From an uncultured Candidatus Saccharibacteria bacterium (lineage in GTDB: Bacteria; Patescibacteriota; Saccharimonadia; Saccharimonadales; AWTP1-31), in the NCBI GenBank assembly GCA_964641545.1, contig CAZXLT010000003.1:23818-87817 (forward strand): 64,000 bases of DNA, in the 5' to 3' direction. The notes under the pieces are model-generated. The model was given only the letters and a program-made list of their open reading frames with translations. It did not search any database and had not been told where the DNA came from. Position numbers and translations under genes: made by a program. Shown here piece by piece: positions 256-63,129 of the stretch. Position 1 is the first letter of the stretch, and every line of letters begins with the position of its first letter.

Positions 256-1506
256 CTATTTTTTCGTTATAAGAACCTGTGTGTTTTTACCTCTTCGTAG
301 TACCAGGTGTCCTTGCACAAAGTCGTTCTCATCCAACTTTTGTTTTCCGTCAGCGGCAACTTTGTCATTAATGTATATAGCGCCTGAGGCTAGGAACCTT
401 CGCGCTTCTGTGTTGGAGCTGGCAAGTCCAGATTCAACCAATAGCTCTACTAGTGAGTTTTCGTTGTTCACTGTAAATTCTGTAAGTCCTAATCCCATAA
501 AATCATCTTTCGAGAACCTATCGTAGTGCTTATTGCTAAACAATTGCTTTGCAGCCGCTTCGTTTTCTTTCGCAAATTGTTCCCCGTGTACGAGCTTTGT
601 TACCTCGTAAGCTAATCGTTTTTGGGCAGCGCGGGATGAACGATCTGTATTAAAATCTGTCATAACTTCATTGACTGCTTTTTGGTCTAATTCAGTAAAG
701 ACTTTCAAGTAATCTTCTACGCTCTCGTCATCAACATTTAGCCAAAACTGATAAAAATCATACGGTGTAGTTTGATCTGCTGCGAGCCATATTGCACCAC
801 CTTCGGTCTTTCCAAACTTTTGACCAGTAGTCTTGTTGAGAATGAGCGGAGTTGTCCAGACGTGAGCTTCGGCACCTGTTAGACGTCGGATTAAATCGAC
901 ACCAGCGATACTATTTCCCCACTGGTCTGAACCGCTTAACTGCAACGTTACACCTTTTGTTTTGTTCAAGTGTAAAAAGTCGAATGCTTGAATCAGTACA
1001 TAACTAAATTCTGCGTAGCTAATTCCGTTTCCACCCTCTGCTAAACGTGTTTGAACAAAATCACGACTAAGCATTTGTCGCATTGGTACGTGTTTACCAA
1101 TGTCCCTCAGAAAATCAAGGTAATGCATATCCTTAAACCAATCGAAATTATCAACAACCTCAAAATCGAACCCTGCAAATACTTGCTTATATTGCTCAAC
1201 AATCGCTTGCTTGTTCTTAGTTATTTCTTCTGGCGTTTTCAAATTCCGCTCGTCAGCCTTGCCATCTGGGTCGCCAATTAGGCCAGTTGCGCCACCGATT
1301 AAAAGAATCGCTTTATAACCGTGTCGCATAAAGGTGCGTGCCATCATTGCAGCCGCAAGGTTGCCAATCTGCATAGAAGTTGCACTTGGGTCAACACCAA
1401 AGTAGAACGTACGTTTCGTTTTGTCTAACTCAGTAGGATCGGCAAACGTTGTTTGATTGGCAAAACCTCTCCAGCTGAGCTCTTCGCTTAAAAGTTGTGT
1501 ACTCAT
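256..1506 (-). CDS. tyrS: Tyrosyl-tRNA synthetase
   Basis: The conserved sequence begins at internal ATG 1504-1506 (MSTQLLSEELSWRGF). It has GVDPSAT-SMQIGN (variant HIGH region), KFGKTEGG (KMSKS region) and a C-terminal S4-like RRFLASGAIYIND. The 165 nt N-terminal extension in the ORF track overlaps the divergent PBP gene and promoter region. Confidence 0.93.
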   Translation of the reverse strand: MSTQLLSEELSWRGFANQTTFADPTELDKTKRTFYFGVDPSATSMQIGNLAAAMMARTFMRHGYKAILLIGGATGLIGDPDGKADERNLKTPEEITKNKQAIVEQYKQVFAGFDFEVVDNFDWFKDMHYLDFLRDIGKHVPMRQMLSRDFVQTRLAEGGNGISYAEFSYVLIQAFDFLHLNKTKGVTLQLSGSDQWGNSIAGVDLIRRLTGAEAHVWTTPLILNKTTGQKFGKTEGGAIWLAADQTTPYDFYQFWLNVDDESVEDYLKVFTELDQKAVNEVMTDFNTDRSSRAAQKRLAYEVTKLVHGEQFAKENEAAAKQLFSNKHYDRFSKDDFMGLGLTEFTVNNENSLVELLVESGLASSNTEARRFLASGAIYINDKVAADGKQKLDENDFVQGHLVLRRGKNTQVLITKK

Positions 1507-1514
1507 ATGAAACA

Positions 1515-1520
1515 AGTATA
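1515..1520 (-). promoter_or_regulatory. -10 box TATACT, 8 nt upstream of the tyrS ATG (leaderless candidate)
   Basis: Minus strand reads GAGGTATACTTGTTTCATATGAGT. No SD. Confidence 0.4.
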
Positions 1521-1583
1521 CCTCAAGGCTAAATACCCTATCCAAATATTGCACAATAATCTGCTTTAGGAATTGCTTGTGTT

Positions 1584-1592
1584 TGCTATAAT
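1584..1592 (+). promoter_or_regulatory. Extended -10 TGcTATAAT for the PBP1A gene
   Basis: tttgcTATAATaagg sits 32 nt upstream of ATG 1625. An AAGGGGAAG SD follows. Confidence 0.4.
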
Positions 1593-1624
1593 AAGGATCA
1601 TATTTAAGGGGAAGAAACATACTA

Positions 1625-4621
1625 ATGGCTAAGACCAGCAAACCGGGTTCGAATCGTGCAAAACGTAACATTCATACAACTCGAAGCGGCAAGACATTCA
1701 AAGTAAACAGAGGGCTTGTCCAAAGGTGGGTAAACAGCAAGGACGCTAAAGAGCAGCGAAAAGCCCAAAGGATGGCAGGGCTTCCCAAGGGGCGTGTTAA
1801 GCGCTTTTTGTATCACTTCCAGCCAAAACGCATGTACCACTACTGGTTTAGCCGAGACGGCGCAATTATGGCGCTCAAGCTTGCTGGCGCAGGCTTTGCT
1901 GTTGGCTTTTTGGTTCTGTTAGGTTTGTTTGCATACTTCCGCAAAGACCTACCGAACCTGCGTGATATTTCTGGAAATAATATTGGTGGAAGTATTCGTT
2001 ATTACGACAGAACCGGTCAAACACTGCTTTGGGAGGATTATGACGCTGTAAAACGAATTCCAGTAAAAAATGACGCTATAGCACAGGACCTTAAAGATGC
2101 AACGGTGGCGATTGAGGACAAAGACTTCTTTAAGCATGGTGGATTTGACGTGCGCGGCATAACAAGAGCTGGCGTAAATAACCTCATGGGTAAAAGTAGC
2201 ACCCAAGGTGGGTCCACTATCACCCAACAGCTCGTTAAGCTTACGCAAAACTGGACGCGTGATCGTAGCTATACTCGAAAAGTCAAAGAACTTATATTGT
2301 CTGTTGAGCTGGAACGAAGCTACTCAAAACAAGAAATTCTTACCGGATACTTGAACACCGCCCCGTACGGCAATGTGCAGTATGGGGCTGAAGCTGCATC
2401 GCGCGATTATTTCCAAAAGTCAGCTAAAGACCTCTCCCTGGATGAGTCTGTGTTCTTGGCTGCGATACCCAAATCACCCTCGTTCTACTCGCCATACGGT
2501 GCTTATTTTAAAGACAATGCCAACGAGTCAAAACCTGCGCTCGTAGGTCGTATGCAATACATTCTTGACCAAATGGTGCAGCAAGGCATGATTACCAAGA
2601 AAGAACGAGACGACGCGAAAAAAGTTGATGTACTAGCAAAAGTAAAAGAACCTCAAGCAAAATATGCTGGAATAAAAGCTCCGTGGTTCGTGCTTGCTGC
2701 TAAGCAACAATTAGAAGATAAGTTCGGTGACCAAACCGTAAAGCGTGGCGGTTGGACAGTGACAACAACTCTGGACATGGACAAGCAGAAACTTGCCGAG
2801 GACCAGGTTAATGCCGGGCTTGCACAGGTACGACGACAAGGTGGTGATGTAGCAGCATTTGCGGCGCAAGATGTTAAAACGGGCCAGATGGTCGCGTTAG
2901 TAGGTGGTTCTGACTTTACAAACCCCGATTATGGTCAATTTAACTATGCCACTTCACCGTTGCCTCCAGGTTCTAGCTTTAAACCGTACGATTATGCAGC
3001 TTTAATCGAGCACAGCAACAATGTTGGCGCAGGAACGGTGTTATATGACACACAAGGTCCTGTTGACGGGTACCCATGCACGAACAAAAACAATCCTAAG
3101 GGTGACAAGAAAGCGAACTGTTTGTGGGACTACGATTTTCGGTATCCCGGACCAATGACACTTCGGTACGCACTGGGTGGCTCGAGAAACGTACCTGCCA
3201 TAAAAGCGATGCTTATTGTTGGTGTTGATAAAACTATTCAGACTGCTGAAAAACTAGGGCTTAAAAGTGGTTATAAGTGTTACGAAGACGAGAAAAACAC
3301 CAAAGAAGGTCCATGCTATGCGTCGTCTGCCATTGGTGACGGAGCATTTCTACACCTCGACGAGCATGTACATGCCTACGGCACGCTTTCGCGCAACGGT
3401 GCCAACATACCACAAACTTATATTCTAAAAATAACCGATTCAGGTAGCAAGACCGTTGACCAGTGGAAGCCAACGAAAGGTGAACAAGCGGTGCGTGCAG
3501 ACACTGCTTATATTGTGTCAGATATGTTGAGTGATCCAAATGCTAGCTACTTCCCTGCAGGCCGCAAGCCGCACCGTTACAAAAACTGGAAGTTTGCTAT
3601 GAAAACTGGAACAACCAACGACAACAAAGACGGCTGGATGATGGGCTTCTCGCCGCAGTATGCAGCTGGAGTTTGGGTTGGGTACCACACCAGACAAAAA
3701 GTTATGAGCGGCACAATGGAAGCAATGACACAGCCTATCTGGCAAGGATGGATGAACAAAGCGCACGACAACATTCCGGCGTTTGACCGCGAAAAACCAG
3801 CAGGAGTGCGCACTGAAGCAGCCTATGTTGTACGAAGTCATGTCGGTATTGGATCTGTCGAACCAAGTCCTGCAACTGACTTAGTACCGGGTTGGTACAA
3901 GAACGATCGCAAAGCCGACAATAGCGCTAAGACGATAGACAAAGTTTCTAATAAAATTGCAACTGACTGTACGCCAGCACTGGCGCGTGAAGAGAATAAA
4001 GACACCGCGGCCAATACATTTTCGGTTGATCGATTTGTTGCCGGTGGTAATGGCAATGGAGACAAGGATGACATCCACAAGTGTGAAGACAGCAAACCAG
4101 GCATTTCCCTGCGTGCTGTAGCTAATGGATCGAGCTATGACCTGTCTGTAGACGTTTCTCAAGGAACTCACCCAATTAATAGCGATAAGTTTAGAGGAAC
4201 AGTTAACTATATCCTAGATGGACAAACAATTCGTAGCTTTAATATTGACGGTGCCGGTTCAGGACTTGCCGCCTTCACCTATACACCTGATTTCACTGGA
4301 TCAAAAGCTCTGAGCGCGCAGGTTATTGACAGCGTGCTCTACGATGCAACAAGCGATAACGTAACACTGGAAGCGGTTACAGTCAGTTCTGCGCCTTTCA
4401 CGGTAACAGCAACTCCTACGGGTGGTAGTAAGTATAAGTTCACATGGTCTTCTGGAGGTACAGGAACAATTACTGTGTACACTTCACCTAATAGTGCTAT
4501 CTGTAGCGCATTAGCAGCTGCGAGCGGTTGCCCTAATGCTAGTGGCTATACTGTATCTAATATATCGGGTGCGTATGCTAAAGATAGTGCAGACAATCAA
4601 GTGACCGTTTCTGGTCCTTAA
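1625..4621 (+). CDS. ponA: Bifunctional class A penicillin-binding protein (glycosyltransferase plus transpeptidase) with a long C-terminal extension
   Basis: GT51 motifs EDKDFFKHGGFD and GGSTITQQLVK. Transpeptidase motifs SSFKPY (SxxK) and KTGTTND (KTG). N-terminal TM helix. The last ~270 aa are Ser/Thr/Gly-rich and look beta-rich. Confidence 0.93.
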   Translation: MAKTSKPGSNRAKRNIHTTRSGKTFKVNRGLVQRWVNSKDAKEQRKAQRMAGLPKGRVKRFLYHFQPKRMYHYWFSRDGAIMALKLAGAGFAVGFLVLLGLFAYFRKDLPNLRDISGNNIGGSIRYYDRTGQTLLWEDYDAVKRIPVKNDAIAQDLKDATVAIEDKDFFKHGGFDVRGITRAGVNNLMGKSSTQGGSTITQQLVKLTQNWTRDRSYTRKVKELILSVELERSYSKQEILTGYLNTAPYGNVQYGAEAASRDYFQKSAKDLSLDESVFLAAIPKSPSFYSPYGAYFKDNANESKPALVGRMQYILDQMVQQGMITKKERDDAKKVDVLAKVKEPQAKYAGIKAPWFVLAAKQQLEDKFGDQTVKRGGWTVTTTLDMDKQKLAEDQVNAGLAQVRRQGGDVAAFAAQDVKTGQMVALVGGSDFTNPDYGQFNYATSPLPPGSSFKPYDYAALIEHSNNVGAGTVLYDTQGPVDGYPCTNKNNPKGDKKANCLWDYDFRYPGPMTLRYALGGSRNVPAIKAMLIVGVDKTIQTAEKLGLKSGYKCYEDEKNTKEGPCYASSAIGDGAFLHLDEHVHAYGTLSRNGANIPQTYILKITDSGSKTVDQWKPTKGEQAVRADTAYIVSDMLSDPNASYFPAGRKPHRYKNWKFAMKTGTTNDNKDGWMMGFSPQYAAGVWVGYHTRQKVMSGTMEAMTQPIWQGWMNKAHDNIPAFDREKPAGVRTEAAYVVRSHVGIGSVEPSPATDLVPGWYKNDRKADNSAKTIDKVSNKIATDCTPALAREENKDTAANTFSVDRFVAGGNGNGDKDDIHKCEDSKPGISLRAVANGSSYDLSVDVSQGTHPINSDKFRGTVNYILDGQTIRSFNIDGAGSGLAAFTYTPDFTGSKALSAQVIDSVLYDATSDNVTLEAVTVSSAPFTVTATPTGGSKYKFTWSSGGTGTITVYTSPNSAICSALAAASGCPNASGYTVSNISGAYAKDSADNQVTVSGP

Positions 4622-5961
4622 ACTTCTAAGAAAGTATTCAACGCTGAACGGACATCTTTAACCGCAGATAGCATACTGTTGGATTTTGCGTCTCTACTTT
4701 TAGGCCCAATCACTAGTTTAAAACCAAGCTTCCTTGCTTCAGCGATTCGCTTGTCTACAAATGGTACGTGGCGCACTTCACCTGATAACCCAACCTCACC
4801 AAATACGACAGCATCCTTTTTCAGTTGCATACCTTTGCTGGCACTTGCTATAGCCATACAAATAGCCAGGTCAGCCGCAGGTTCGCTTATTTTTATGCCC
4901 CCGACAATATTCACGTATATGTCTTGTTCAGCTAAAGAGAGCTTCGTGCGACGCTCTAGCATGGCGACAAGTAAATTCACTCGATTAAGATCAATTCCAC
5001 TCGCAGCGCGCTTAGGATAGCCGTAGCTTGTTTTATTCACTAAGGCCTGGACCTCAACCAGAACTGGTCGAGTGCCCTCCAGGGTCGCAAGTACAATTGA
5101 ACCATCATTAACCTGTCTTTCTGATAAAAGCGCGGCCGAGGGATTGTCTACGGGCTGCAGGCCGCTGTCTCGCATTTCAAAGATCCCAGCCTCGTTTGTT
5201 GAGCCATAACGGTTTTTTACGCTTCGGAGTAATTTAAAGCCACCGTAGCGGTCACCCTCCAGTTGTAATACAACGTCTACGACATGTTCAAGAACTTTTG
5301 GACCGGCTATAGAGCCTTCTTTTGTGACGTGCCCAACTATAACTATCGCTGTATTGCTGGCTTTCGCAGCTTCACTTATGAGATGTGTGCTATTTGTGAT
5401 CTGGCTAATTGTTCCCGGTGCAGAGCTGACTACACTAGTTTGCAGGGTTTGGATCGAGTCTACTACAACAAGGTTATAGTTTTTACTGGCAATACTGGTT
5501 GCAATATCTTCTGCGTTGACTGAGCTGGCCAGCGCAAGACCTTTGCTTGTTGCATTGAGCCGTCGGGCGCGAAGTCCCACTTGGTGCGTCGATTCTTCGC
5601 CGCTACAGTAGAGTACACTATTGTTTTGCCCGAGCGCATCGGCAATCTGTAATAGCAGCGTGCTTTTACCAATTCCTGGTTGCCCTGCAATCAACGTAAC
5701 ACTCCCAGGGACAAAACCACCGCCAAGCACATCGTCTACTTCTAAAATTTTAGTGGTGAGCCTCTTTTCAGGACTTACGCGTGTAACCTGTGCCAAGGGT
5801 GTAGGCTGTATAGTATGCCCTCTATTCCCTTTTAGACTTGTAACAATTTCTGCCTGTTCTTCAAGAGTGTTCCATTCACCACACTGATAACATTTCCCTG
5901 CCCAGCTACCTGAGGTCGCACCACAATTAGTACAAACAAAATTTACACTTGGTTTCGCCAT
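4618..5961 (-). CDS. radA: DNA repair protein RadA/Sms
   Basis: C4 zinc ribbon CTNCGATSGSWAGKCYQCGEW, Walker A GQPGIGKST, KNRYGSTNE (RadA KNRFG motif) and a Lon-like C-terminal domain. The 3' end overlaps the PBP 3' end by 4 nt. Confidence 0.95.
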   Translation of the reverse strand: MAKPSVNFVCTNCGATSGSWAGKCYQCGEWNTLEEQAEIVTSLKGNRGHTIQPTPLAQVTRVSPEKRLTTKILEVDDVLGGGFVPGSVTLIAGQPGIGKSTLLLQIADALGQNNSVLYCSGEESTHQVGLRARRLNATSKGLALASSVNAEDIATSIASKNYNLVVVDSIQTLQTSVVSSAPGTISQITNSTHLISEAAKASNTAIVIVGHVTKEGSIAGPKVLEHVVDVVLQLEGDRYGGFKLLRSVKNRYGSTNEAGIFEMRDSGLQPVDNPSAALLSERQVNDGSIVLATLEGTRPVLVEVQALVNKTSYGYPKRAASGIDLNRVNLLVAMLERRTKLSLAEQDIYVNIVGGIKISEPAADLAICMAIASASKGMQLKKDAVVFGEVGLSGEVRHVPFVDKRIAEARKLGFKLVIGPKSRDAKSNSMLSAVKDVRSALNTFLEV

Positions 5962-5990
5962 TGTAAAATCAAGTGTAACAAATCGCTAAA

Positions 5991-6962
5991 CTATTTAGTA
6001 TCTTTGGTAGAGATTCGATTATCTAGCGCCTTAACGAGAGCTTGCGCTTCCTCGGCGACGGCGTTTCTTTCGTTAAGTACTGTTTTATAGGTGTTTACCA
6101 AGTTTCTCGTTTTATTAACTAGGTTATTGTATGACTGGATCATCGCGTTGTAGCCAGGCACTGCTGCGTTATACTCGTCAACGTGATTAGCACTTCGTAA
6201 AGCAATGACCCGTTGTTCTTCGGCATCAATCTCGACGATTCGTTTATCTAGTTCTGCATTGTTTGACGCGATATCTTTTTCGAGATCGCTTAACCTAAGG
6301 GTTAATGCTTCCAGCCGTGCTTTTCTGGAAGTGAATTCGGCTTTATAGCCATTCGAATAGTTAACAATCTTTCGTCTGTCAGAAAAATACAGCCTGTAAT
6401 GTGCCTCGAGCTCCGCAGGTAAATTGGCTACTTCCGTACCCAGTATAGAATGTAATTCATTTGTGATATCTGCGTTTGCTTGTTTGTACAGATTAATTTT
6501 TTCAGTAACTTCAGTGTTATTAAGCTCTTGGTACGCATTGTTCAGTAATGCTGAGATGCGCTGCTTTTCGTCTGCTCCCATGCGGTCGTAAGCGGCATGC
6601 AGCATCTCATGTGCAGCCGTTACTTCTTCAACACCGTGTAAGCGCTCGTCCGTTACATCCAGGATAAAAATGCCTTTATCGTCTATATAGCAACCAAGGA
6701 CGGCTGTTTTTTCATTCTCAGTACAACTGCCGTAGAAGCTGGCCTTATCCTGTAACTGCGGACGATTTATATAAAAGACCCTGCGCGCCGAATCTACCAT
6801 AGTTGTGTCGTTTGCTAACTTTGCGATTGCGCTGGGTGCTTGGTAGTTCCTAAGCGCCCACCAGTCAAGAATGGCTTGATAACGAACAACGGTATACGCC
6901 ACTGGCGTAGCTAAAACCAATGTAATTATGGTCGTTGTTACAACCTTTTTTGTTTTACTCAT
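5991..6962 (-). CDS. Membrane-anchored hypothetical protein with HExxH motif and coiled-coil C-terminal half
   Basis: N-terminal TM helix VVTTTIITLVLATPVAYTVV, HEMLH motif, and a heptad-rich C-terminal ~170 aa. I recognise no family. ATG 6960-6962 is preferred over GTG 6966-6968. Confidence 0.6.
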   Translation of the reverse strand: MSKTKKVVTTTIITLVLATPVAYTVVRYQAILDWWALRNYQAPSAIAKLANDTTMVDSARRVFYINRPQLQDKASFYGSCTENEKTAVLGCYIDDKGIFILDVTDERLHGVEEVTAAHEMLHAAYDRMGADEKQRISALLNNAYQELNNTEVTEKINLYKQANADITNELHSILGTEVANLPAELEAHYRLYFSDRRKIVNYSNGYKAEFTSRKARLEALTLRLSDLEKDIASNNAELDKRIVEIDAEEQRVIALRSANHVDEYNAAVPGYNAMIQSYNNLVNKTRNLVNTYKTVLNERNAVAEEAQALVKALDNRISTKDTK

Positions 6963-6998
6963 TGTCACGAACTTTAGTATACGCTATTTTCGTAAGCA

Positions 6999-9467
6999 TT
7001 ATTCCTGTGAAACAGTATAGCTGTAATCTTTGTTCTTGTATGTTACGTCAATGATGTCGCCTTTGGTGTACGCACTATCCAACAACCCATGCGCTACCTG
7101 GTCTTCAATAGTATCTTGTAAAAGCCTACGCAAAGGTCTCACACCATTATGCGAGTCATACCCTGCCTCTAAAAGCTGTTTTTTTGCAGCAGCAGTAACG
7201 CTCAAGCCTAAACCGTGGCGGGTAAGTCTTTGGCGGAGCTCTTCAAGTTGCAAGTCTAGAATCTTCATGACATCTTTCTTCGTTAGCGCGCGGAACACCA
7301 AGATCTTATCAATCCGGTTCAACAGTTCAGGGCGCAGCATTTTTTTCAGTTCATCCTGGACCTTGTCTTTGTTTCGCGCATGTAAACTGTCTAAGTCTCG
7401 CTCATCAGCGGAACTTTTAGCCTGGAATCCTAGGCTCGCTTCTTTCTGGAGCTTATCCGCCCCTATGTTGCTGGTCATGATGATAATTGTGTTACTGAAG
7501 TCAACGCTACGCCCTTTGGCGTCTGTTAGTACTCCATCTTCAAGAATTTGTAGCAACATGTTGAAAATTTCTGGGTGAGCTTTTTCAATTTCATCAAACA
7601 GCACCAGACTATAGGGTTGTCTACGGATTTTATCAGTCAGCTGTCCACCTTCTTCGTACCCTACATATCCCGCAGGTGCACCCACAAGGCGAGAAGCAGT
7701 GTGGCGCTCGCTAAACTCACTCATGTCGATCTTAATCATGGCGTCTTTGTTGCCGAAAAACTCCTTAGCAAGGACTCGAGCGAGCTCGGTCTTTCCAACG
7801 CCAGTTGGTCCAAGGAACACAAAAGATCCTATCGGCCGTTGCTCGCTGCTTACGCCTGAACGATTACGTCTGATCGCTTTAGCCACCGCTTCGACAGCTT
7901 CATCTTGACCAATCACATGCTTGCCTAATGTTTTTTCAAGGCTTAGCAAGTACTTTGCTTCCGATCGGATAACTTTTTGCACCGGAACACCCGTCCACCT
8001 GGCTACGACCTCAGCAATATCGTCGCTGGTCATTACTAAGGCGGGGGAGGATTTACCCGTGATGTGTAACTTTTTAAGATCCTTTTCGATTTGACTTGCA
8101 CGTGTTTTAAACTTTGCAGCTTGTTCATAATCTTCACTGTCGACTGCCTCGTCAATTTTTGACTGAACAAGCTTAAGTTCCTTTTGTAATGACCTGACCT
8201 CCGGTGATGTCCTACCCTTGTCTACGCGTAGGTGAGCCGCAGTTTCGTCAAGTAAATCTATGGCTTTATCAGGCATGAATCGATCACTAATATAACGATC
8301 GCTTAATCGAACAGTGTCCTCAATTACCTCGTTGCTAATTGATACATTGTGAAATTCCTCATAATGCTTTTTTAAGCCCTTAAGGATCGCTAGAGTTTCC
8401 GTGTTTGTCGCTTCAGGCACCTGGATAGGCTGGAATCGTCTTTCAAGAGCTGCATCTTTTTCAATATGCTTTGTATACTCATCAGTTGTAGTCGCACCAA
8501 TCACCTGAATTTTGCCGCGCGCCAGTGCTGGTTTTAGAATATTGCCAGCATCCATTGCGCCCTCAGCAGCACCAGCTCCGACTAACAAGTGCAACTCGTC
8601 AATAAATACAATTGTTGACTTATCATTTTCAAGTTCGGCCATTACTTTTTTTAACCGTTCTTCGAACTCACCTCTGTATTTGGTACCTGCAATCATGCCA
8701 GCAAGATCAAGCATCACGATTCTTTTATCTAACAGGCTATCCGGGACGTCTTCTGCAATGATTCTCTGGGCCAAGCCCTCAACAATAGCGGTTTTTCCCA
8801 CTCCAGGTTCACCAATAAGCACTGGGTTGTTTTTAGTACGGCGATTAAGGATTGTAATAACCCGGCGTATTTGATTTTCTCGCCCGACAACAGGATCCAA
8901 TTTGTTGTCACGGGCTTGGGCTGTCAGATCCGTTCCAAAGAAATCTAGGGCTGTTTTACGACCCTTTTTACCTTTGCGACGTGTTCCTGCACTACCTGCT
9001 GAGCTTTGCTGTTTATTAAGAAACTGCTCTAACTGACCCATTAAGTTATCAACATCAATATTCATATCACGAAGCAAAATTGTTGCACGGGCGTTTTTTT
9101 GAGTAAGAATACTGTAAAGAATGTGCTCGGTTCCACAGTAGTCCTGTGAATAGTCCTGAGCAATGTCATATGCCATCTTTAAGGTTAGCTTGGCAGTTTC
9201 ACTCAAACCTTTTGCGCCCATATTAATCACCATTGTTTTTGGAGTAAGATTTAGAGCCAATCTAGCTCGGTCGAGCGTTACCCCGACATCTTCAAGAAGC
9301 TTTGCACCCATGCTAGTGTCTTGCGCAAGCACCCCTAAGAGCAAATGTTCAGTGCCAATATAAGCACTGCTAAAACTTCGAGCGATAGCGTCGGCATGTT
9401 TTAGACTCTGGAGTGCATTGTCCGTTAGGTGGTTCAAAAATTCTTGGAAGTCTGGTGAGTTTTGCAT
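6999..9467 (-). CDS. clpC: ATP-dependent Clp protease ATP-binding subunit ClpC
   Basis: Two Clp_N repeats, Walker A GEPGVGKT (D1) and GPTGVGKT (D2), and a UVR-like linker DYEQAAKFKTRASQIEKDL. Start set to MQNSPDFQEF (ATG 9465-9467). Confidence 0.93.
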   Translation of the reverse strand: MQNSPDFQEFLNHLTDNALQSLKHADAIARSFSSAYIGTEHLLLGVLAQDTSMGAKLLEDVGVTLDRARLALNLTPKTMVINMGAKGLSETAKLTLKMAYDIAQDYSQDYCGTEHILYSILTQKNARATILLRDMNIDVDNLMGQLEQFLNKQQSSAGSAGTRRKGKKGRKTALDFFGTDLTAQARDNKLDPVVGRENQIRRVITILNRRTKNNPVLIGEPGVGKTAIVEGLAQRIIAEDVPDSLLDKRIVMLDLAGMIAGTKYRGEFEERLKKVMAELENDKSTIVFIDELHLLVGAGAAEGAMDAGNILKPALARGKIQVIGATTTDEYTKHIEKDAALERRFQPIQVPEATNTETLAILKGLKKHYEEFHNVSISNEVIEDTVRLSDRYISDRFMPDKAIDLLDETAAHLRVDKGRTSPEVRSLQKELKLVQSKIDEAVDSEDYEQAAKFKTRASQIEKDLKKLHITGKSSPALVMTSDDIAEVVARWTGVPVQKVIRSEAKYLLSLEKTLGKHVIGQDEAVEAVAKAIRRNRSGVSSEQRPIGSFVFLGPTGVGKTELARVLAKEFFGNKDAMIKIDMSEFSERHTASRLVGAPAGYVGYEEGGQLTDKIRRQPYSLVLFDEIEKAHPEIFNMLLQILEDGVLTDAKGRSVDFSNTIIIMTSNIGADKLQKEASLGFQAKSSADERDLDSLHARNKDKVQDELKKMLRPELLNRIDKILVFRALTKKDVMKILDLQLEELRQRLTRHGLGLSVTAAAKKQLLEAGYDSHNGVRPLRRLLQDTIEDQVAHGLLDSAYTKGDIIDVTYKNKDYSYTVSQE

Positions 9468-9476
9468 ACTGAAACA

Positions 9477-9505
9477 ATAGTAGCAAACTAGCACTCGTCA
9501 TGCAA
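9477..9505 (-). promoter_or_regulatory. clpC promoter: -35 TTGCAT, 17 nt spacer, TGcTACTAT, 9 nt to the ATG
   Basis: Minus strand reads CTCTTGCATGACGAGTGCTAGTTTGCTACTATTGTTTCAGTATG. No SD. Confidence 0.45.
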
Positions 9506-9517
9506 GAGTGCTAGTTT
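9485..9517 (-). terminator. Hairpin downstream of nusA (12 bp stem, 9 nt loop), T-rich on both sides
   Basis: AAACTAGCACTC gtcatgcaa GAGTGCTAGTTT. The minus strand continues GCTACTATTGTTT; the plus strand continues TACTTTT. Confidence 0.45.
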
Positions 9518-9562
9518 TACTTTTGGAGTTTCTGTTGAGCTCTTTTTTAGGAATGTGACTTT

Positions 9563-10720
9563 CTATTCGCCGTGCTCTTCAATCGCTTCAAGAAGGCTGC
9601 TCTCAAGCTGCTCTTTCTTTTTCAGTTTTGGAACCGCAGGCTTTACTGTTTCGGGTTTTGCTTTTGTGACGCTGCTTTCGGTTTTTTCTGGAGCAATATC
9701 AATGTCGTACCCAGTAAGCTTACTTGCAAGGCGTACATTTTGGCCGGCCTTACCAATGGCAATACTCTGTTGGTCTTCTGGTACTAAAACCTCGGCTTTC
9801 TTTTCTGTTTCGTTAATTGTTACTTTGCTGACCTTGGTTGGACTGAGCGCATTAACAATAAACTTCTTCACATCTTCATCCCAAACAACAATATCTATTT
9901 TTTCCTGTTCGCCAACTTCACCCATAACGGCGTTTACGCGAGTTCCATGACCGCCTACAAATGTACCAACTGGATCAACACCAGGTACGCTACTTGCGAC
10001 TGCAATTTTAGATCGAACTCCTGCTTCGCGGGCGATAGTCTTGATCTCAACCGCGCCGCTCTCCATTTCGGGGACTTCGGCACGGAATAAATCTTCAATA
10101 AAGTCGGCGCTACCGCGACTGACAACTAATTGTGGACCACGCATACCTCGTTCAACATCTTTCAAAAACACTTTCAGACGTTGTCCTGGATAATATCGTT
10201 CACCCTGAATCTGCTCACTTTTTGGCATAATACCCTGTGCTTTTCCAAGGTCAATGCGCACAATCATTCCCTCGACGCGAGAAACAATACCATTGATGAT
10301 GGTCCCGATTTTATCGTCATATTCAGCCATAACAATTTCGCGCTCTGCTTCGCGGAGTCGCTGCAAGATTACTTGCTTAGCTGTTTGTGCTGCAACACGT
10401 CCAAAGTTTTCAACTTTTTGATGGATTTCTACCTCTTCACCAATCTTGGCATTTTTTCGAATAGTTTGCGCCTCTCCCAGCTCTATCTCAAAATGTGGGT
10501 CGCCAACACGTTCAACAATTTCTTTGCTAATGTAGGCATCGACCTCGCCATTGTTAAGGTTCATCGTTACACGAACTTCTTGTTCGCGATCACCATAATC
10601 CCGTTTATAAGCTGCGGCAAGCGCTTGTTCGACAATTTCTTGTACTGTTGCTTCAGGCAAATTTTTCTCTTCAGCAATGGTCTTAACAGCCATTGCGAGA
10701 CCTTTCATATCTAGTTCCAT
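9563..10720 (-). CDS. nusA: Transcription termination/antitermination factor NusA
   Basis: N-terminal AVKTIAEEKNLPEATVQEIVEQALAAAYKR, then S1 and two KH regions. An AAGGAG Shine-Dalgarno lies 5 nt upstream of the ATG. Confidence 0.93.
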   Translation of the reverse strand: MELDMKGLAMAVKTIAEEKNLPEATVQEIVEQALAAAYKRDYGDREQEVRVTMNLNNGEVDAYISKEIVERVGDPHFEIELGEAQTIRKNAKIGEEVEIHQKVENFGRVAAQTAKQVILQRLREAEREIVMAEYDDKIGTIINGIVSRVEGMIVRIDLGKAQGIMPKSEQIQGERYYPGQRLKVFLKDVERGMRGPQLVVSRGSADFIEDLFRAEVPEMESGAVEIKTIAREAGVRSKIAVASSVPGVDPVGTFVGGHGTRVNAVMGEVGEQEKIDIVVWDEDVKKFIVNALSPTKVSKVTINETEKKAEVLVPEDQQSIAIGKAGQNVRLASKLTGYDIDIAPEKTESSVTKAKPETVKPAVPKLKKKEQLESSLLEAIEEHGE

Positions 10721-10746
10721 CGTTACTCCTTGTGTGTCAGTTTATG

Positions 10747-10771
10747 AAAAAATCCGGCCAATTGGTCGGAT
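10747..10771 (-). promoter_or_regulatory. Hairpin plus U-tract in the nusA 5' leader (attenuator or terminator-like)
   Basis: Minus-strand RNA is AUCCGACC-AAUU-GGCCGGAU followed by UUUUUU. There is one A-C mismatch in an 8 bp stem. It lies between the predicted promoter and the AAGGAG SD. Confidence 0.3.
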
Positions 10772-10782
10772 CTACTAAAACA

Positions 10783-10810
10783 AGTATACCATACTCTGTG
10801 TTGTGCACAA
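10783..10810 (-). promoter_or_regulatory. nusA promoter: -35 TTGTGC, 16 nt spacer, TGgTATACT
   Basis: Minus strand reads TTGTGCACAACACAGAGTATGGTATACT. The -35 lies within the perfect palindrome TTGTGCACAA (10801-10810). Confidence 0.4.
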
Positions 10811-10835
10811 TACGCCGTTTTCAGTTACGTACCCA

Positions 10836-10844
10836 TGCTAGAAT
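10836..10844 (+). promoter_or_regulatory. Extended -10 TGcTAGAAT, 7 nt upstream of the pepN ATG (leaderless candidate)
   Basis: catgcTAGAATttaatgaATG. No SD. Confidence 0.4.
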
Positions 10845-10851
10845 TTAATGA

Positions 10852-13455
10852 ATGAAGAATGTGCGAAGACTCTATGACCAGTTCCAACCGCAGCATTATA
10901 TTTTGAACCTAGCACCTGACCGTGATGCAATGAAGTTTAAAGGTACAGTTGTTATAAGTGGGCGAAAAGTCGGCCGGCCAAGCCAACGCATAACATTACA
11001 CCAAAAGGATTTAGTGGTCACAAAGGTTCATCTTATACATCACACAAAGACAGGCGATAAAGAGGTGGTCGTGCACCGCACGAACCCACATACCGCTTTT
11101 GATGAAATCCGTTTGCACAGCGAGCACATGATGTACCCGGGCAGCTATACCATTAGTCTTGAATTCAATGGCGTTATTACAAAAGCCATGAATGGCATGT
11201 ATCCTTGTTACTTTACACACGAAGGTAAGGAAAAGATCTTAATTGGAACACAGTTTGAGAGCCACCACGCTCGTGAAGTTTTCCCATGTGTTGACGAACC
11301 AGAAGCTAAAGCAACATTTGATTTAACATTGACGACCCCAGTCGGTGAAGCTGTAGTTTCAAATACGCCTGTTAAATCACAGAAAGTTATTGACGATTCA
11401 CTCGAAACTACGTTTGAACGAACGCCGCATATGAGTACTTACTTACTTGCATTCGTGTATGGTGAGATGGACTTTTTGGAAGCAAAAACAAAAGATGGAG
11501 TCGTCGTACGCACCTATGCAACGCCAGATAACGTTGTTCATACCAAGTTCGCCCTTGAAACAGCGGTGTCTGTACTCGAGTTTTATAACGACTATTTCGG
11601 TATAAAGTACCCGTTAGAAAAGTGCGATATGTTAGCCTTGCCTGATTTTGCCAGTGGAGCAATGGAAAACTGGGGGTGCATAACCTACCGTGAACATGCA
11701 ATGTTGGTTGACCCAGACAACACGAGCCTTGCAAGCAAACAGTTTGTAGCTTTAGTGGTCGCGCATGAGCTGGCTCACCAGTGGTTTGGTAATTTAGTGA
11801 CAATGAAGTGGTGGACTGATCTTTGGCTGAACGAGGGATTTGCAAGTTGGATAGAGTATCTGGCTGTCGATAATTTGCACCCCAGTTGGAAAATGTGGAC
11901 TCAGTTTGTAGTCGACGAACAGCAACAAGGACTTAAGCTTGACGCACTCGAGCACACCCACGCCATAGAAGTACCAATACATCACCCGGATGAAATTAGA
12001 ACGATTTTTGACGCTATTAGTTACAGTAAAGGCAGTAGTGCTATTCATATGCTTCATGAATATCTTGGCGCCAAAGCGTTTCAACAAGGACTACGCTATT
12101 ACCTGAAGAAGCACGCATACAAAAACACAGACACAGTTGATCTATGGCAAGCGCTAGAAGAAACTTCTGGCAAGCCAGTGACTGATTTTATGCATAAGTG
12201 GACAACACAAAGCGGGTTCCCATTGCTTACAGCGACTGTTGACGAGGACACTGTCTCGCTTTCCCAAGAGCGTTTTATGCTTAATTCAAAGGCGAAGGTC
12301 AAACACACAACATGGCCAATTGCCCTACTATCACACGAAGACGTGTTGCCCGAAGTGTTGGATGAAAAAACTGCAAGCATTCAGCTAAAACAAACCTCAC
12401 ACCTTAAACTCAATCAGGGTCAGAGTGGTTTTTATCGGGTTAGCTATAACGCGACTCATCTTGAAGGCTTGGCTAGTCAAATCAAGCGTGGGCACCTCGA
12501 ACCTCTGGATCGGCTTGGTATCTTGTCTGATGTATTTGAAGCTGCCAAAGCCGGGAAGAACGACACTGCTGAAGCACTACATTTACTCGCATCGTTTGAA
12601 AATGAGGACGATAACGCCGTCTGGGATGTAATTGCCACCAATCTTTCTAGCGTTCGTCACGTCATGAACAACGACGAAATCCGTGAGAATATGAAACATT
12701 TCGTGCGAAAGCTTGTCCATAGTCAACGAAAACGACTGGGATGGAAGCCTAAGCCACATGAGTCTCACTTTGATCGCTTACTGCGACCCACAATCCTGGG
12801 CATGGCAGCGCTTGCCGACGAAAAGGAAGTTGTCGAAAAAGCACTTCGCCTTTTTAAATCCATGCACGAACCGGACGATCTCGGTGTTGAGCTCAGAACT
12901 GCAAATATGCCAACAACCTTACGAAGTGGAGGTATTGACCCAGACATGAGAGGCGTGGTGTATGGCACGGCAGCCAGACACGGAGGCGCATTAACCTTTA
13001 ATAAACTTGTTCAAATGCATAATGATTCAAAGTTTAGCGAAGAACGTCTCAACCTTTGTTCTGCTATTTGCGGTTTTGAAGATCCTGAGCTTATCCAAAA
13101 AGCTTTGGAAATGATACGCAGTGACCACGTGCGCTTGCAAGATGTTGCGTATTGGTTGGTTTATAGTTTTGCCAACAGACATGCACGACAGGCGACATGG
13201 GAGTGGATGGTGAAAAACTGGAGATGGCTAGAAAAGAATCTTGGTAATGACTTGTCATTTTATCGTTTTCCCATATATGCAGGACGGGCATTTAGTGATG
13301 CAAAATTTTTGCCAACATTTAGGAATTTTTTTGACAAGCATATGTCTCCAGCTTTTGAGCGAAGTATTAACCAAGGCATCGAGACAATCGAGTGGCAGGC
13401 AGCCTGGCGAGAACGAGACGAAAAGCTTGTCCACGCTTTCTTTAAAAATCAGTAA
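10852..13455 (+). CDS. pepN: Aminopeptidase N (M1 family metallopeptidase)
   Basis: GAMENWG exopeptidase motif and HELAHQWFGNLVTMKWWTDLWLNEGFA (HExxH-18-E). Confidence 0.93.
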   Translation: MKNVRRLYDQFQPQHYILNLAPDRDAMKFKGTVVISGRKVGRPSQRITLHQKDLVVTKVHLIHHTKTGDKEVVVHRTNPHTAFDEIRLHSEHMMYPGSYTISLEFNGVITKAMNGMYPCYFTHEGKEKILIGTQFESHHAREVFPCVDEPEAKATFDLTLTTPVGEAVVSNTPVKSQKVIDDSLETTFERTPHMSTYLLAFVYGEMDFLEAKTKDGVVVRTYATPDNVVHTKFALETAVSVLEFYNDYFGIKYPLEKCDMLALPDFASGAMENWGCITYREHAMLVDPDNTSLASKQFVALVVAHELAHQWFGNLVTMKWWTDLWLNEGFASWIEYLAVDNLHPSWKMWTQFVVDEQQQGLKLDALEHTHAIEVPIHHPDEIRTIFDAISYSKGSSAIHMLHEYLGAKAFQQGLRYYLKKHAYKNTDTVDLWQALEETSGKPVTDFMHKWTTQSGFPLLTATVDEDTVSLSQERFMLNSKAKVKHTTWPIALLSHEDVLPEVLDEKTASIQLKQTSHLKLNQGQSGFYRVSYNATHLEGLASQIKRGHLEPLDRLGILSDVFEAAKAGKNDTAEALHLLASFENEDDNAVWDVIATNLSSVRHVMNNDEIRENMKHFVRKLVHSQRKRLGWKPKPHESHFDRLLRPTILGMAALADEKEVVEKALRLFKSMHEPDDLGVELRTANMPTTLRSGGIDPDMRGVVYGTAARHGGALTFNKLVQMHNDSKFSEERLNLCSAICGFEDPELIQKALEMIRSDHVRLQDVAYWLVYSFANRHARQATWEWMVKNWRWLEKNLGNDLSFYRFPIYAGRAFSDAKFLPTFRNFFDKHMSPAFERSINQGIETIEWQAAWRERDEKLVHAFFKNQ

Positions 13456-13774
13456 CTAACTCTCCTACACGAAAGTCGCTACCAGAAACCTCAACGGCAG
13501 CAAGTTGATAACCACCTTCCCAATTATGCTCATGTACCCATGTTTCCGCTGCGAGGGTCATCTGTTGAAGTTTTGAACGCGTGATGTACTCTAGACCCGA
13601 TCCTTGCGTGTCCGTCTTTCGATACTTTACTTCTACAAAATATATCTGATCACCGCGCCTCGCAACTATGTCTATCTCGCAGCGAGGAGTTTTCCAGTTC
13701 CGAGCCACAACACGCCAACCAAGACCGGAAAGGTGTTTTGCTACTTTATCTTCCGCTTCCTGTCCAGAATTCAT
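13442..13774 (-). CDS. yraN: YraN family (UPF0102) endonuclease-like protein
   Basis: AEDKVAKHL...WKTPRCEIDIVARRGDQIYFVEVKYR. Start set to ATG 13772-13774, just after the rnhB stop. The 3' end overlaps the pepN 3' end by 14 nt. Confidence 0.8.
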   Translation of the reverse strand: MNSGQEAEDKVAKHLSGLGWRVVARNWKTPRCEIDIVARRGDQIYFVEVKYRKTDTQGSGLEYITRSKLQQMTLAAETWVHEHNWEGGYQLAAVEVSGSDFRVGELVTDF

Positions 13775-13778
13775 TACG

Positions 13779-14330
13779 CTACCGCACCAGGGCCTTAACT
13801 GGCTTGTAGCTTTTCCGATGAATCTCACACGGACCAAGAGCGCGAAGCGCTTCACGGTGAGCTGCCGTGCCATAGCCAACATGCTTAAAAAATCCATACC
13901 CAGGAAACTGAAGATCTTTTTGGGCCATGTAATGATCTCGTGCCACTTTCGCTACAATACTTGCTGCGCTCACCGCAGGTACACTTTGGTCCGCACGAAC
14001 CACTGCTCGAGAATTACGTAAACCCGAAAGAAAGTTATAAGACCCGTCAACTATGAGATCCTCGTATTGTTGTATGCCTTCCACGGCGCGGTACATAGCC
14101 AGCCTAACAGCCTCCGTCAAGCCAAGCGTATCAATTTCTTTATTCGTTACCCAGCCAAGACTAACTGCGCGCGCTTTTTCCCAAATTTGACGACTCAAGT
14201 CTGCCCTTTTCTTCTTCGTTAACACTTTTGAGTCTGCTAAACCGGCAATGGACTCTTCCAGAATAACCGCTCCTGCAACAAGTGGACCAGCCCAAGAACC
14301 TCTGCCCGCTTCATCAACCCCGAGAATCAT
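13779..14330 (-). CDS. rnhB: Ribonuclease HII
   Basis: MILGVDEAGRGSWAGPLVAGAV (DEAGRG catalytic motif); the full length resembles RNase HII. Confidence 0.92.
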   Translation of the reverse strand: MILGVDEAGRGSWAGPLVAGAVILEESIAGLADSKVLTKKKRADLSRQIWEKARAVSLGWVTNKEIDTLGLTEAVRLAMYRAVEGIQQYEDLIVDGSYNFLSGLRNSRAVVRADQSVPAVSAASIVAKVARDHYMAQKDLQFPGYGFFKHVGYGTAAHREALRALGPCEIHRKSYKPVKALVR

Positions 14331-14340
14331 GCTGTAATAA

Positions 14341-14370
14341 TAACAAAAATCACCTCATCTCAGGTGATTT
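14341..14370 (-). terminator. Rho-independent terminator after rplS
   Basis: Minus strand reads AAATCACCT-GAGATG-AGGTGATTT followed by TTGTTATTATT. 9 bp stem, 21 nt after the rplS stop. Confidence 0.6.
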
Positions 14371-14391
14371 AAGTTGTAATTTCAGATTGAA

Positions 14392-15012: not shown

Positions 15013-15020
15013 ATGTCACT

Positions 15021-49614: not shown

Positions 49615-49656
49615 AAGTATATTTTACCACTTTTATAAGGTTTTGCCAAGTATTGC

Positions 49657-50118: not shown

Positions 50119-50124
50119 AGTATA
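50119..50124 (-). promoter_or_regulatory. -10 TATACT, 9 nt upstream of ATG 50109 of the Nudix gene (leaderless candidate)
   Basis: Minus strand reads GGTGTATACTATGCGCACAATGGGA. Confidence 0.35.
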
Positions 50125-51904: not shown

Positions 51905-51910
51905 ATTCTA
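51905..51910 (-). promoter_or_regulatory. -10 TAGAAT, 9 nt upstream of the ABC exporter ATG (leaderless candidate)
   Basis: Minus strand reads AAGATAGAATTAACATGGCATGAAA. Confidence 0.35.
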
Positions 51911-58466: not shown

Positions 58467-58472
58467 TACACT
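58467..58472 (+). promoter_or_regulatory. -10 TACACT, 6 nt upstream of the yajQ ATG (leaderless candidate)
   Basis: gcgcTACACTatatctATG. Confidence 0.35.
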
Positions 58473-58478
58473 ATATCT

Positions 58479-58998: not shown

Positions 58999-59004
58999 TA
59001 TACT
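58999..59004 (+). promoter_or_regulatory. -10 TATACT, 6 nt upstream of the GH63-like gene ATG (leaderless candidate)
   Basis: cgtTATACTagactcATG. Confidence 0.4.
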
Positions 59005-60345: not shown

Positions 60346-60351
60346 TATTAT
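60346..60351 (+). promoter_or_regulatory. -10 TATTAT, 6 nt upstream of the alr ATG (leaderless candidate)
   Basis: gagTATTATtactacATG. Confidence 0.35.
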
Positions 60352-61835: not shown

Positions 61836-61850
61836 ACCTATAACCTACCA

Positions 61851-61872
61851 GCTTGAACTTCCAGGTTCAAGC
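61851..61872. other. 8 bp stem hairpin GCTTGAAC-6 nt-GTTCAAGC between rmuC and the 105 aa ORF
   Basis: Read directly from the sequence. There is no clear T-run on the minus strand, so terminator function is uncertain. Confidence 0.3.
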
Positions 61873-61893
61873 ATTTGCATATTAAATAATGAG

Positions 61894-63114
61894 TTAGGAA
61901 TTGCCTGGATCACCAAGACTCAATGCTGTGTTCTCTGCTGTTTGCTCTGTTTTGTTAGCAAGTTGCTGTACTTTGCCAAGCTTTCGCTCAATGGTTCGGC
62001 TCTTTGTAGTTGCTGTATCTATTGTCTTGGTTGCTTGCACCAGTTTTTCGCGGGTTTTATCTAGTAAGTCGCCAAATTTGCCAAACTCTCCTTTAATGCC
62101 CGTTAATAGCTCCCAAACCTGCCCCGTCTGTTCGGCTATAGCAAGTGTTCTAAAACCGAGTTGATAGCTATTGAGAATGGCTGCTATTGTTGTTGGTCCA
62201 GCAATAGTCACGCGAAGTTCAGACTGAAGCTGTTCAAAAAGCCCTGGCTCTCTCAGGATTTCTGCAAACATACCTTCCGTTGGCACGTATAAAACAGCAA
62301 AGTCAGTGGTGCGAGGTGGCGATATATACTTAGATTTTATAGACTTAGCCTCCAGCTTGACCCTGCTAACCAATGCTTTCTGTGCTGTCGCGGCTGTTTC
62401 GGTTTCTCCTTTTTCTTGTGCAACAACTAAACGTTGGTAATCCTCAAGTGGAAATTTGGCATCGATCGGTAGGTAAATATATCCTTTTTCAGAACTCTTG
62501 TCCGGGAGTTTGATGGCGAAATCTACCAGCTCGCTCGAATGGGGATTAACTTTTACCTGCTTGTCATAGTGATCCTTTATGAAAACTTGCTCTAATAAAC
62601 TTTCTAGCTGCACCTCGCCCCAAGTTCCTCGAGTCTTTACATTTGTAAGTACACGCTTAAAATCGCTAACATCGCTGGCTAGATTTTGCATTTCACCCAG
62701 GCCTTTGTGCACCATCTCTAGTCGCTCGCTTACCACCTTAAAGCTCTCGCTCAGTCGCTTTTCTAGTGTACTTTGTAGTTTCTCGTCCACAGTGGAGCGC
62801 ATTTTTTCTAACTTTTCGGCATTGTCTTTTTGAAGACTTTCCAAACGATACTCTACAGTTTTTCGTATTTGCTCTAGTTTTTCATCGTTCTTGTCTCGCA
62901 GCAAATCAAGGCGCTTGTCGAGTGCATTACGTGAACTACTCAAATTAGCATTTAGCTCTTGCCGCAAGTCTTTGCCTGAAGTAGCTATTTCTTTTCGATT
63001 ACGCGCAAATTCGTCTCGCAAAGGTTTGTCTAAATTTTGACTTGTTTTTCTGAGTAGCAACACGGCTAGCAAAACGCTATTAACCCCTCCTAAAACAATT
63101 GCGACCATCTCCAT
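61894..63114 (-). CDS. rmuC: DNA recombination protein RmuC
   Basis: N-terminal TM, a ~150 aa coiled coil, and a C-terminal RmuC nuclease-like region (VDFAIKLP...YLPIDAKFPLE...VLYVPTEG). Confidence 0.88.
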   Translation of the reverse strand: MEMVAIVLGGVNSVLLAVLLLRKTSQNLDKPLRDEFARNRKEIATSGKDLRQELNANLSSSRNALDKRLDLLRDKNDEKLEQIRKTVEYRLESLQKDNAEKLEKMRSTVDEKLQSTLEKRLSESFKVVSERLEMVHKGLGEMQNLASDVSDFKRVLTNVKTRGTWGEVQLESLLEQVFIKDHYDKQVKVNPHSSELVDFAIKLPDKSSEKGYIYLPIDAKFPLEDYQRLVVAQEKGETETAATAQKALVSRVKLEAKSIKSKYISPPRTTDFAVLYVPTEGMFAEILREPGLFEQLQSELRVTIAGPTTIAAILNSYQLGFRTLAIAEQTGQVWELLTGIKGEFGKFGDLLDKTREKLVQATKTIDTATTKSRTIERKLGKVQQLANKTEQTAENTALSLGDPGNS

Positions 63115-63120
63115 GCTTCA

Positions 63121-63129
63121 AGTATACCA
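63121..63129 (-). promoter_or_regulatory. Extended -10 TGgTATACT, 6 nt upstream of the rmuC ATG (leaderless candidate)
   Basis: Minus strand reads GCTGGTATACTTGAAGCATGGAG. Confidence 0.4.

Follow-up and report, generated by a model that had tools for sequence, protein, structure and literature searches.

Candidate leaderless genes behind extended -10 promoters in a Candidatus Saccharibacteria contig

Leaderless initiation is a known mode of translation in bacteria, in which leaderless mRNAs use the 70S ribosome together with initiator tRNA. In mycobacteria, leaderless mRNAs may start with GUG or AUG, Deinococcus deserti has a -10-like motif a few nucleotides (nt) upstream of the start codon, and in the E. 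coli system the lambda cI (PRM) and Tn1721 tetR mRNAs combine a 5'-terminal AUG with a strict AUG requirement and no Shine-Dalgarno (SD) sequence. Among the genome types of GeneMarkS-2, as set out in the main text of that study, group C has a Pribnow box 6-8 nt from operon-first genes and a ribosome-binding site (RBS) on the others, with 25-50% of transcription units leaderless; it consists mainly of Actinobacteria and Deinococcus-Thermus, and Saccharibacteria and the Candidate Phyla Radiation (CPR) are absent from that main text (PMC6028130). The same text cites 167 leaderless genes among the 262 mapped in D. deserti (de Groot et al. 2014, cited in PMC6028130). Here we analyzed a 64-kb stretch of DNA (the window) from contig CAZXLT010000003.1 of an uncultured Candidatus Saccharibacteria bacterium, in which TAnnnT hexamers resembling a -10 element stand a few nucleotides before start codons. 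A preliminary description had taken 17 such boxes as a sign of widespread leaderless mRNAs, and this reading was supported by every computational test able to separate an ATG-abutting promoter from an AT-rich or RBS-like signal. In all probability, sigma-70 extended -10 promoters abut the ATGs of these genes and give rise to leaderless, AUG-dependent mRNAs, beside other genes that are SD-led; the start sites are inferred from the position of the box.

A search of openly accessible full texts, among them the main text of the GeneMarkS-2 study, gave no account of leaderless mRNAs, transcription start site (TSS) maps or promoter architecture in Saccharibacteria or the CPR, a provisional result. 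A TM7x transcriptome preprint makes no mention of TSS, untranslated regions or promoters. A 2025 promoter survey in Nucleic Acids Research provides 188 TSS derived from RNA-seq for N. lyticus, and leaderless genes are not discussed there (PMC12641261). Provisionally, we found no record of leaderless initiation for the Saccharibacteria lineage.

A -10-like box at a fixed distance from the start codon

The gap is defined here as the number of nucleotides between the -10 hexamer and the start codon. The gene table of the window (n=58) includes 41 unit-first genes, which are divergent or at least 16 nt from the neighboring gene, and 16 internal genes. A TAnnnT hexamer was present at gap 6-9 in 25 of the 41 unit-first genes (~60%), compared with 4.9 ± 2.1 when the same upstream sequences were shuffled, and none of 5000 shuffles reached 25. 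Only 1 of the 16 internal genes had such a box. The unit-first counts rose from 1 at gap 5 to 12 at gap 6, ran 5, 5, 6, and 4 over gaps 7-10, dropped to 0 at gap 11, and were ~1-2 per position elsewhere. When the hexamers were restricted to 12 strong ones, 18 of the 41 unit-first genes carried a box, against 1.3 expected. The comparison with shuffled upstream regions, which the preliminary description had suggested for the whole genome and which we ran on the window, therefore places the enrichment far above the AT-rich background.

These counts depend on the start codon assigned to each gene. We also performed an anchor test in which no start is chosen: five strong hexamers (TATACT, TATAAT, TAGAAT, TACAAT, and TACACT) served as anchors, and ATGs opening open reading frames (ORFs) of at least 100 codons were counted at each gap. 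In the window, 16 of 150 strong hexamers had a long-ORF ATG behind them at gap 6-10, where ~2.3 were expected from gaps 21-60. As a word, TATACT showed no overall over-representation. An anchor histogram with all 64 TAnnnT hexamers was dropped, as ATGs inside coding sequences drowned it in 3-periodic noise; the strong-hexamer and gene-start-restricted versions were used.

The signal was replicated in 80 tyrS-centred loci from distinct related species (1.3 Mb in all), with titles naming Saccharibacteria or Saccharimonadales. The window itself has a GC content of ~45% and very tight gene packing. The TyrS read from 256-1506 on the minus strand agrees at 100% identity with an NCBI-deposited protein of a 92,496-bp contig, and the closest relatives, at 60-67% identity, all belong to Candidatus Saccharibacteria/Saccharimonadales assemblies. 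The window is thus assigned to a metagenome-assembled genome of the Saccharibacteria (TM7), within the CPR/Patescibacteria. The gene order pepN-nusA-clpC-...-PBP-tyrS is also found on the 840-kb chromosome of one relative, and no species-level representative of the window's organism was found among the genomes scanned. In the anchor test of the 80 loci (2714 strong hexamers), long-ORF ATGs numbered 8, 10, 7, 4, 5, and 3 at gaps 0-5, then 64, 77, 50, 40, 44, and 32 at gaps 6-11, and ~3-14 beyond. Permuted hexamers gave no peak in the same loci. The enrichment after strong boxes was confined to ATG (3.5-fold), with GTG at 0.7-fold and TTG at 0.8-fold, and GTG, TTG, CTG, and ATA all at 0.7-1.0, whereas ~30% of SD-flagged starts are GTG or TTG. 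Nearly all of the 66 loci of at least 10 kb showed the signal, with a median of 0.31 sites per kb, equal to the window value. With automatic gene calls, TAnnnT lay at gap 6-10 before a candidate start in 48% of genes, compared with 19% for decoy internal codons, and a strict criterion assigned 309 of 980 genes in the related loci to the leaderless type. The motif was commonest in same-strand pairs 10-25 nt apart (79 of 126) and was found in 1 of 80 overlapping pairs; overlapping pairs in the related loci counted 1 leaderless case vs 25 with SD. One locus (L024, DATHJH010000004.1) is labelled Candidatus Limnocylindria (Chloroflexota), although its TyrS is 61% identical to the Saccharibacteria query and gGTATACT stands 7 nt before the ATG; this contig may be mis-binned or mislabelled.

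The sequence around the box resembles a promoter. When 342 sites were aligned on the box, position -2 was G in 63% and positions -3 and -5 were each T in 47%, a TRTG-like extended -10. Within the hexamer, T prevailed at position 3 (61%) and A at position 4 (91%), and position 5 was C (53%) or A (44%). The consensus of the aligned sites is TnTGnTAtAmT, with a TATACT or TATAAT core. A weak TTG (46%, 37%, and 31% for its three bases) appeared at -23 to -21, the place where a -35 element would start with a 17-bp spacer, and -35-like matches of at least 4/6 were in modest excess over a shifted control across these sites. The enrichment of ATG begins abruptly at gap 6, which is the distance from a -10 element to the TSS and thus favours a promoter. 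Moreover, the base before the ATG was T in 63% of box-adjacent genes, compared with 36-40% in other classes, and this held for each gap from 6 to 10. T at -1 and A at +1 form a pyrimidine/purine start-site context, as expected if transcription starts at the A of the ATG. We also considered TATACT as a stop-codon-linked or RNA-processing motif and rejected it: the hexamer holds no stop codon, and DNA-level promoter features are present.

Genes with an SD form the other class. The contrast genes nusA, FKBP, gap, ppa, and glutaredoxin bear SD sequences just as had been described, and internal genes mostly carry GGAG, GAGG or AGGA. The proposal of two initiation modes, a box-adjacent ATG without SD and an SD at leadered and operon-internal genes, is thus well supported. 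The predicted mode is conserved gene by gene among orthologs: nusA was SD-led in 23 of 27 orthologs and leaderless in 0, whereas 9 of 11 pepN and 41 of 62 radA orthologs were of the leaderless type. The tyrS orthologs (n=80) comprised 42 of the leaderless type (strong box at gap 6-10) and 26 with SD. When the tyrS box was at gap 6-11, an SD was missing in 34 of 35 cases; when it was at least 20 nt upstream, an SD was present in 17 of 28. In many species of the tyrS alignment, g-G-TATACT stands 6-8 nt before the ATG and an SD is missing, while others have TATACT 20-45 nt upstream and a short leader with AGGAG. The same box occurs in both layouts; it therefore behaves as a promoter in both, and lineages would have switched between them. 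A similar short tyrS leader, '...aataacagataaggag...', lies between TATACT and the ATG in seven loci (L023, L055, L057, L059, L067, L068, and L076), which suggests that one clade gained or kept an SD-bearing leader at a gene that is leaderless in others. The GAGG that precedes the tyrS box in the window is unlikely to be an SD, since 14 nt separate its end from the ATG and it lies partly within the promoter.

Boxes gene by gene and start codons

All 17 boxes of the preliminary description are present, with the positions, strands, and gaps to the ATG that it gave. Their hexamers are TATACT (seven), TAGAAT (three), TACAAT (two), and TATAAT, TACTAT, TATATT, TACACT, and TATTAT (one each). A TGn extension, said to occur often, is strictly present in 5 of 17 (clpC, pepN, the 84-amino-acid (aa) ORF, uvrB, and rmuC), and G occupies position -2 of the box in 12 of 17. 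The gene names were borne out by Pfam, for pepN via an ortholog; only 'DUF948-like', applied to the 84-aa ORF, found no match. At least seven further genes are box-adjacent: radA, RNase HII, galU-like, GDPD, NAGS/AA-kinase-like, pheS, and, ambiguously, trxB. The boxes are as follows, with the 17 original cases first, then the added, the ambiguous, and the leadered ones.

tyrS: TATACT, 1515-1520, minus strand, gap 8 to ATG 1506; the start gives the deposited protein
clpC: TGC-TACTAT, 9477-9482, minus strand, gap 9 to ATG 9467
pepN: TGC-TAGAAT, 10839-10844, plus strand, gap 7 to ATG 10852
malic enzyme: TATATT, 15007-15012, plus strand, gap 8 to ATG 15021; overlapped by TATTAT at gap 6
pilB: TATACT, 17775-17780, minus strand, gap 6 to ATG 17768
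SpoU/TrmH-like gene: TACAAT, 17812-17817, plus strand, gap 6 to ATG 17824
CAP-domain protein: TAGAAT, 18345-18350, plus strand, gap 8 to ATG 18359
84-aa ORF without Pfam match: TGC-TATACT, 24194-24199, minus strand, gap 8 to ATG 24185
gatC: TATACT, 28663-28668, minus strand, gap 9 to ATG 28653; intergenic space 20 nt
HerA/TrwB-like ATPase: TATAAT, 31653-31658, minus strand, gap 7 to ATG 31645
uvrB: TGC-TACAAT, 34681-34686, minus strand, gap 6 to ATG 34674
Nudix: TATACT, 50119-50124, minus strand, gap 9 to ATG 50109; 19 nt behind the ABC exporter stop
ABC exporter: TAGAAT, 51905-51910, minus strand, gap 9 to ATG 51895
yajQ (DUF520): TACACT, 58467-58472, plus strand, gap 6 to ATG 58479
GH63/MGH1-like: TATACT, 58999-59004, plus strand, gap 6 to ATG 59011
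alr: TATTAT, 60346-60351, plus strand, gap 6 to ATG 60358; intergenic space 18 nt
rmuC: TGG-TATACT, 63121-63126, minus strand, gap 6 to ATG 63114
pheS (added): TATAGT, 58470-58475, minus strand, gap 7 to ATG 58462; overlaps the yajQ box
radA (added): TGT-TACACT, 5972-5977, minus strand, gap 10 to ATG 5961
RNase HII (added): TGT-TATTAT, 14337-14342, minus strand, gap 6 to ATG 14330; right behind a terminator-like hairpin at 14347-14370
nucleotidyl-transferase, galU-like (added): TGT-TAAACT, 25112-25117, minus strand, gap 7 to ATG 25104
GDPD (added): TACACT, 44876-44881, plus strand, gap 9 to ATG 44891
AA-kinase/NAT (NAGS-like) protein (added): TGG-TAAAAT, 49621-49626, minus strand, gap 6 to ATG 49614
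trxB-like (ambiguous): TATAAT, 47245-47250, minus strand, gap 10 to ATG 47234; GGGAG lies between
323-aa ORF (ambiguous): TATACT, 6976-6981, minus strand, gap 7 to GTG 6968 and 13 nt to the annotated ATG 6962
FKBP (leadered): TATACT, 48212-48217, minus strand, 22 nt before TTG 48189; SD AAGGAGGAGG, predicted leader ~15 nt
PBP (leadered): TGC-TATAAT, 1587-1592, plus strand, 32 nt before ATG 1625; SD-like AAGGGGAAG
ppa (leadered): TACAAT, 44872-44877, minus strand, 33 nt before ATG 44838; SD AAGGAG

The starts next to the boxes were compared with public annotation. Sixteen of the 17 proposed starts yield proteins identical, residue for residue, to the NCBI-deposited products, the trmH-like gene being the sole exception, and 8 further starts that we checked also equal the deposited ones. 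The deposited starts lie inside the longest ORF for tyrS (by 55 codons), clpC (9), the CAP-domain gene (24), the HerA-like ATPase (3), uvrB (1), Nudix (12), and yajQ (6), so that start calls based on the longest ORF are wrong for ~7 of the 17 genes here. The start codons that had been offered as corrections for the ATPase, Nudix, and uvrB genes are the ones that public annotation already has. The longer forms of uvrB (34677) and the ATPase (31654) are not deposited; what had been corrected was therefore the longest ORF and not the public annotation. The NCBI start of the trmH-like gene is ATG 17782, 13 nt from the pilB ATG; in the protein read from there, residue 18 is the first of the SpoU domain. 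A start at 17824 is plausible and is favoured by the box together with the Pfam domain boundary. Correct start codons in metagenome-assembled genomes (MAGs) of Saccharibacteria and the CPR would depend on modelling the box-ATG signal.

A CIRCE-like inverted repeat, CTAGCACTC-N9-GAGTGCTAG, occupies 9488-9514 (minus strand), and 5 nt separate its end from the -10 box of clpC downstream. It matches the pattern TTAGCACTC-N9-GAGTGCTAA at 25 of 27 positions and at 16 of 18 specified bases. It departs from the HrcA operator consensus by 2 mismatches, and the window holds no other match. The half-site GAGTGCTAA is also present upstream of leaderless-type clpC orthologs in three related loci (L008, L021, and L049). 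The repeat adjoins the box, where an operator would block the promoter, and thus supports the box as a promoter; it also suggests that clpC in Saccharibacteria is under HrcA-type heat-shock control. The arrangement of the divergent genes pheS (minus) and yajQ (plus) adds support as well: a mere 16 nt lie between the two start codons, and the -10-like boxes of both genes share bases within TACACTATA (58467-58475), so the upstream half of each promoter would fall in the coding sequence of the other gene. pilB and the SpoU/TrmH-like gene are likewise divergent, with back-to-back boxes (17775-17780, minus; 17812-17817, plus).

Two other intervals stand apart from the boxes. The ~320 nt between the convergent genes pepN and RNase HII (13456-13778), unusually long for a compact genome, gave no confident gene and no Rfam match; their only ORFs, which overlap, are one of 64 aa on the plus strand and one of 151 aa on the minus strand. 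The interval 43637-44298, bounded by the start of gap (43636) and the stop of ppa (44299), holds part of an ORF at 43707-44432, which in its long forms runs into the 3' end of ppa. The tRNA and Rfam scans of the whole 64-kb window returned no match.

Leaderless initiation and other explanations

The mechanism we propose begins with housekeeping sigma-70-type promoters dominated by an extended -10 (TnTGnTAtAcT) with a weak -35. At ~60% of the unit-first genes in the window the -10 box lies 6-10 nt upstream of the ATG, and RNA polymerase would start at the A of the ATG, usually after T, or up to ~4 nt upstream. The resulting mRNA would have neither a 5' leader nor an SD, and by analogy with other bacteria the ribosome may bind the 5'-terminal AUG directly. 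Other unit-first genes have the same type of -10 located 20-45 nt upstream and a short leader with a canonical SD, and operon-internal genes rely on an SD and/or a stop-start overlap. Intergenic gaps are often 10-25 nt, so the upstream half of many promoters lies in the 3' end of the preceding gene.

Several observations weigh against this mechanism or limit it. Agreement with deposited starts is not fully independent evidence, as the gene finder behind them may already model the signal. A TTGACA-N16-18-TATAAT scan of window positions 1-20000 found 28 sites, compared with 29.5 in shuffles, and recovered only the tyrS promoter; because the -35 elements are weak, a two-hexamer sigma-70 scan is uninformative here, and its outcome accords with promoters dominated by the -10. 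Gaps of 9-11 nt may give leaders of 1-4 nt and not a strict 5'-AUG. The boxes of alr and RNase HII (TATTAT) and malic enzyme (TATATT), the trxB-like gene, the trmH start, and the 323-aa ORF are weak or ambiguous cases. Finally, only 18-30 nt separate many unit-first genes from a preceding same-strand gene that lacks a terminator, so that read-through transcripts and reinitiation could also express them.

This last point is the basis of an unlikely alternative, in which the promoters are real but the leaderless route is minor, and SD-less ATGs are served by polycistronic read-through, termination-reinitiation or 70S scanning. The same-strand spaces are indeed short at gatC (20 nt), Nudix (19), the ABC exporter (20), alr (18), rmuC (19), the galU-like gene (19), and uvrB (27), no terminators are evident at any of these, and the motif peaks in 10-25 nt gaps of related loci. 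However, read-through leaves unexplained why a good extended -10 sits at a fixed 6-10 nt from the ATG, divergent genes and those behind long gaps or terminators show the layout just as often (tyrS, pepN, HerA, pilB, and RNase HII), and overlapping or closely coupled genes carry an SD instead. The read-through and leaderless routes are not mutually exclusive. It is less probable still that TAnnnT acts in RNA, as a non-SD translation signal or an unstructured AT-rich stretch in leadered mRNAs of the group B, Bacteroidetes type. TAnnnT is AT-rich and is placed where an RBS would be, but group B motifs precede all genes (PMC6028130), whereas here the box is rare in internal (1/16) and overlapping (1/80) genes, which have a canonical SD instead. 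The TG extension and the TTG at a 17-bp spacer are features of a DNA-level promoter, and an RNA-level signal sits poorly with the abrupt onset at 6 nt, with enrichment of ATG alone when SD-led genes take GTG or TTG in ~30% of cases, and with the same box 20-45 nt upstream in SD-led orthologs.

Chance, through AT-rich upstream sequence and freedom in the choice of start, is effectively refuted. TAnnnT is a loose pattern, seen at gap 6-10 in ~23% of decoy sets of in-frame internal starts, and TATACT is not over-represented as a word. Nevertheless, the observed counts lie far above the shuffle and positional controls, and the anchor test, with no start chosen, gives a 6- to 10-fold peak that is lost with permuted hexamers and non-ATG codons. 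The signal recurs in nearly all of 66 independent loci, and the starts agree with deposited annotation and Pfam domain boundaries.

Implications and comparison with known systems

As a tentative and rather doubtful generalization, operons in Saccharibacteria, and perhaps in the CPR/Patescibacteria, may have been largely replaced by strings of single-gene, leaderless, strictly AUG-initiated transcripts, with extended -10 promoters housed in 10-25 nt gaps and the 3' ends of upstream genes, and with genes switching between leaderless and short SD-leader layouts over evolution. Leaderless initiation would then be the main mode in a lineage with a reduced ribosome, shared with the Actinobacteria hosts of cultivated Saccharibacteria and with other Terrabacteria. 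The present case in itself would add a deep-branching, genome-reduced lineage with stripped-down ribosomes to the heavy users of leaderless initiation, and this distribution bears on whether the mode is ancestral or repeatedly evolved. It is also implied that many apparent operons in these genomes would contain internal promoters. In the design of expression cassettes for newly tractable Saccharibacteria, TGnTATACT placed 6-7 nt before the ATG would represent the native architecture. We regard the finding as of moderate importance, for gene-start annotation in the CPR, for genetic tool design, and for the evolutionary spread of leaderless initiation.

Like group C genomes, the window and its relatives have the box near first genes and an SD on internal and leadered genes, at ~60% of unit-first genes in the window and ~38% in the related loci by the strict criterion. 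They differ from the main group C phyla in lineage, in the TATACT/TG consensus, in an apparent AUG-only rule, and in promoters packed into very short gaps. The predicted organization also resembles that of M. tuberculosis and M. smegmatis, in which a large share of primary transcripts have their 5' end at the start codon (Cortes 2013 and Shell 2015, as cited in PMC6028130). Mycobacteria and other Actinobacteria likewise have -10-dominated promoters with a weak -35 and a coexistence of leaderless and SD-led genes. Unlike in mycobacteria, enrichment here is confined to ATG, and the genome is ~45% GC and extremely compact, with TATACT and a TG extension. Leaderless genes were shown by differential RNA sequencing (dRNA-seq) in mycobacteria and verified by dRNA-seq and proteogenomics in D. 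deserti, a member of another phylum, whereas those described here are predicted from sequence. The ATG-only enrichment resembles the AUG requirement of lambda cI and tetR. Those two, however, are rare exceptions in an SD-dominated genome, whereas the box-adjacent ATG is the commonest layout for unit-first genes here.

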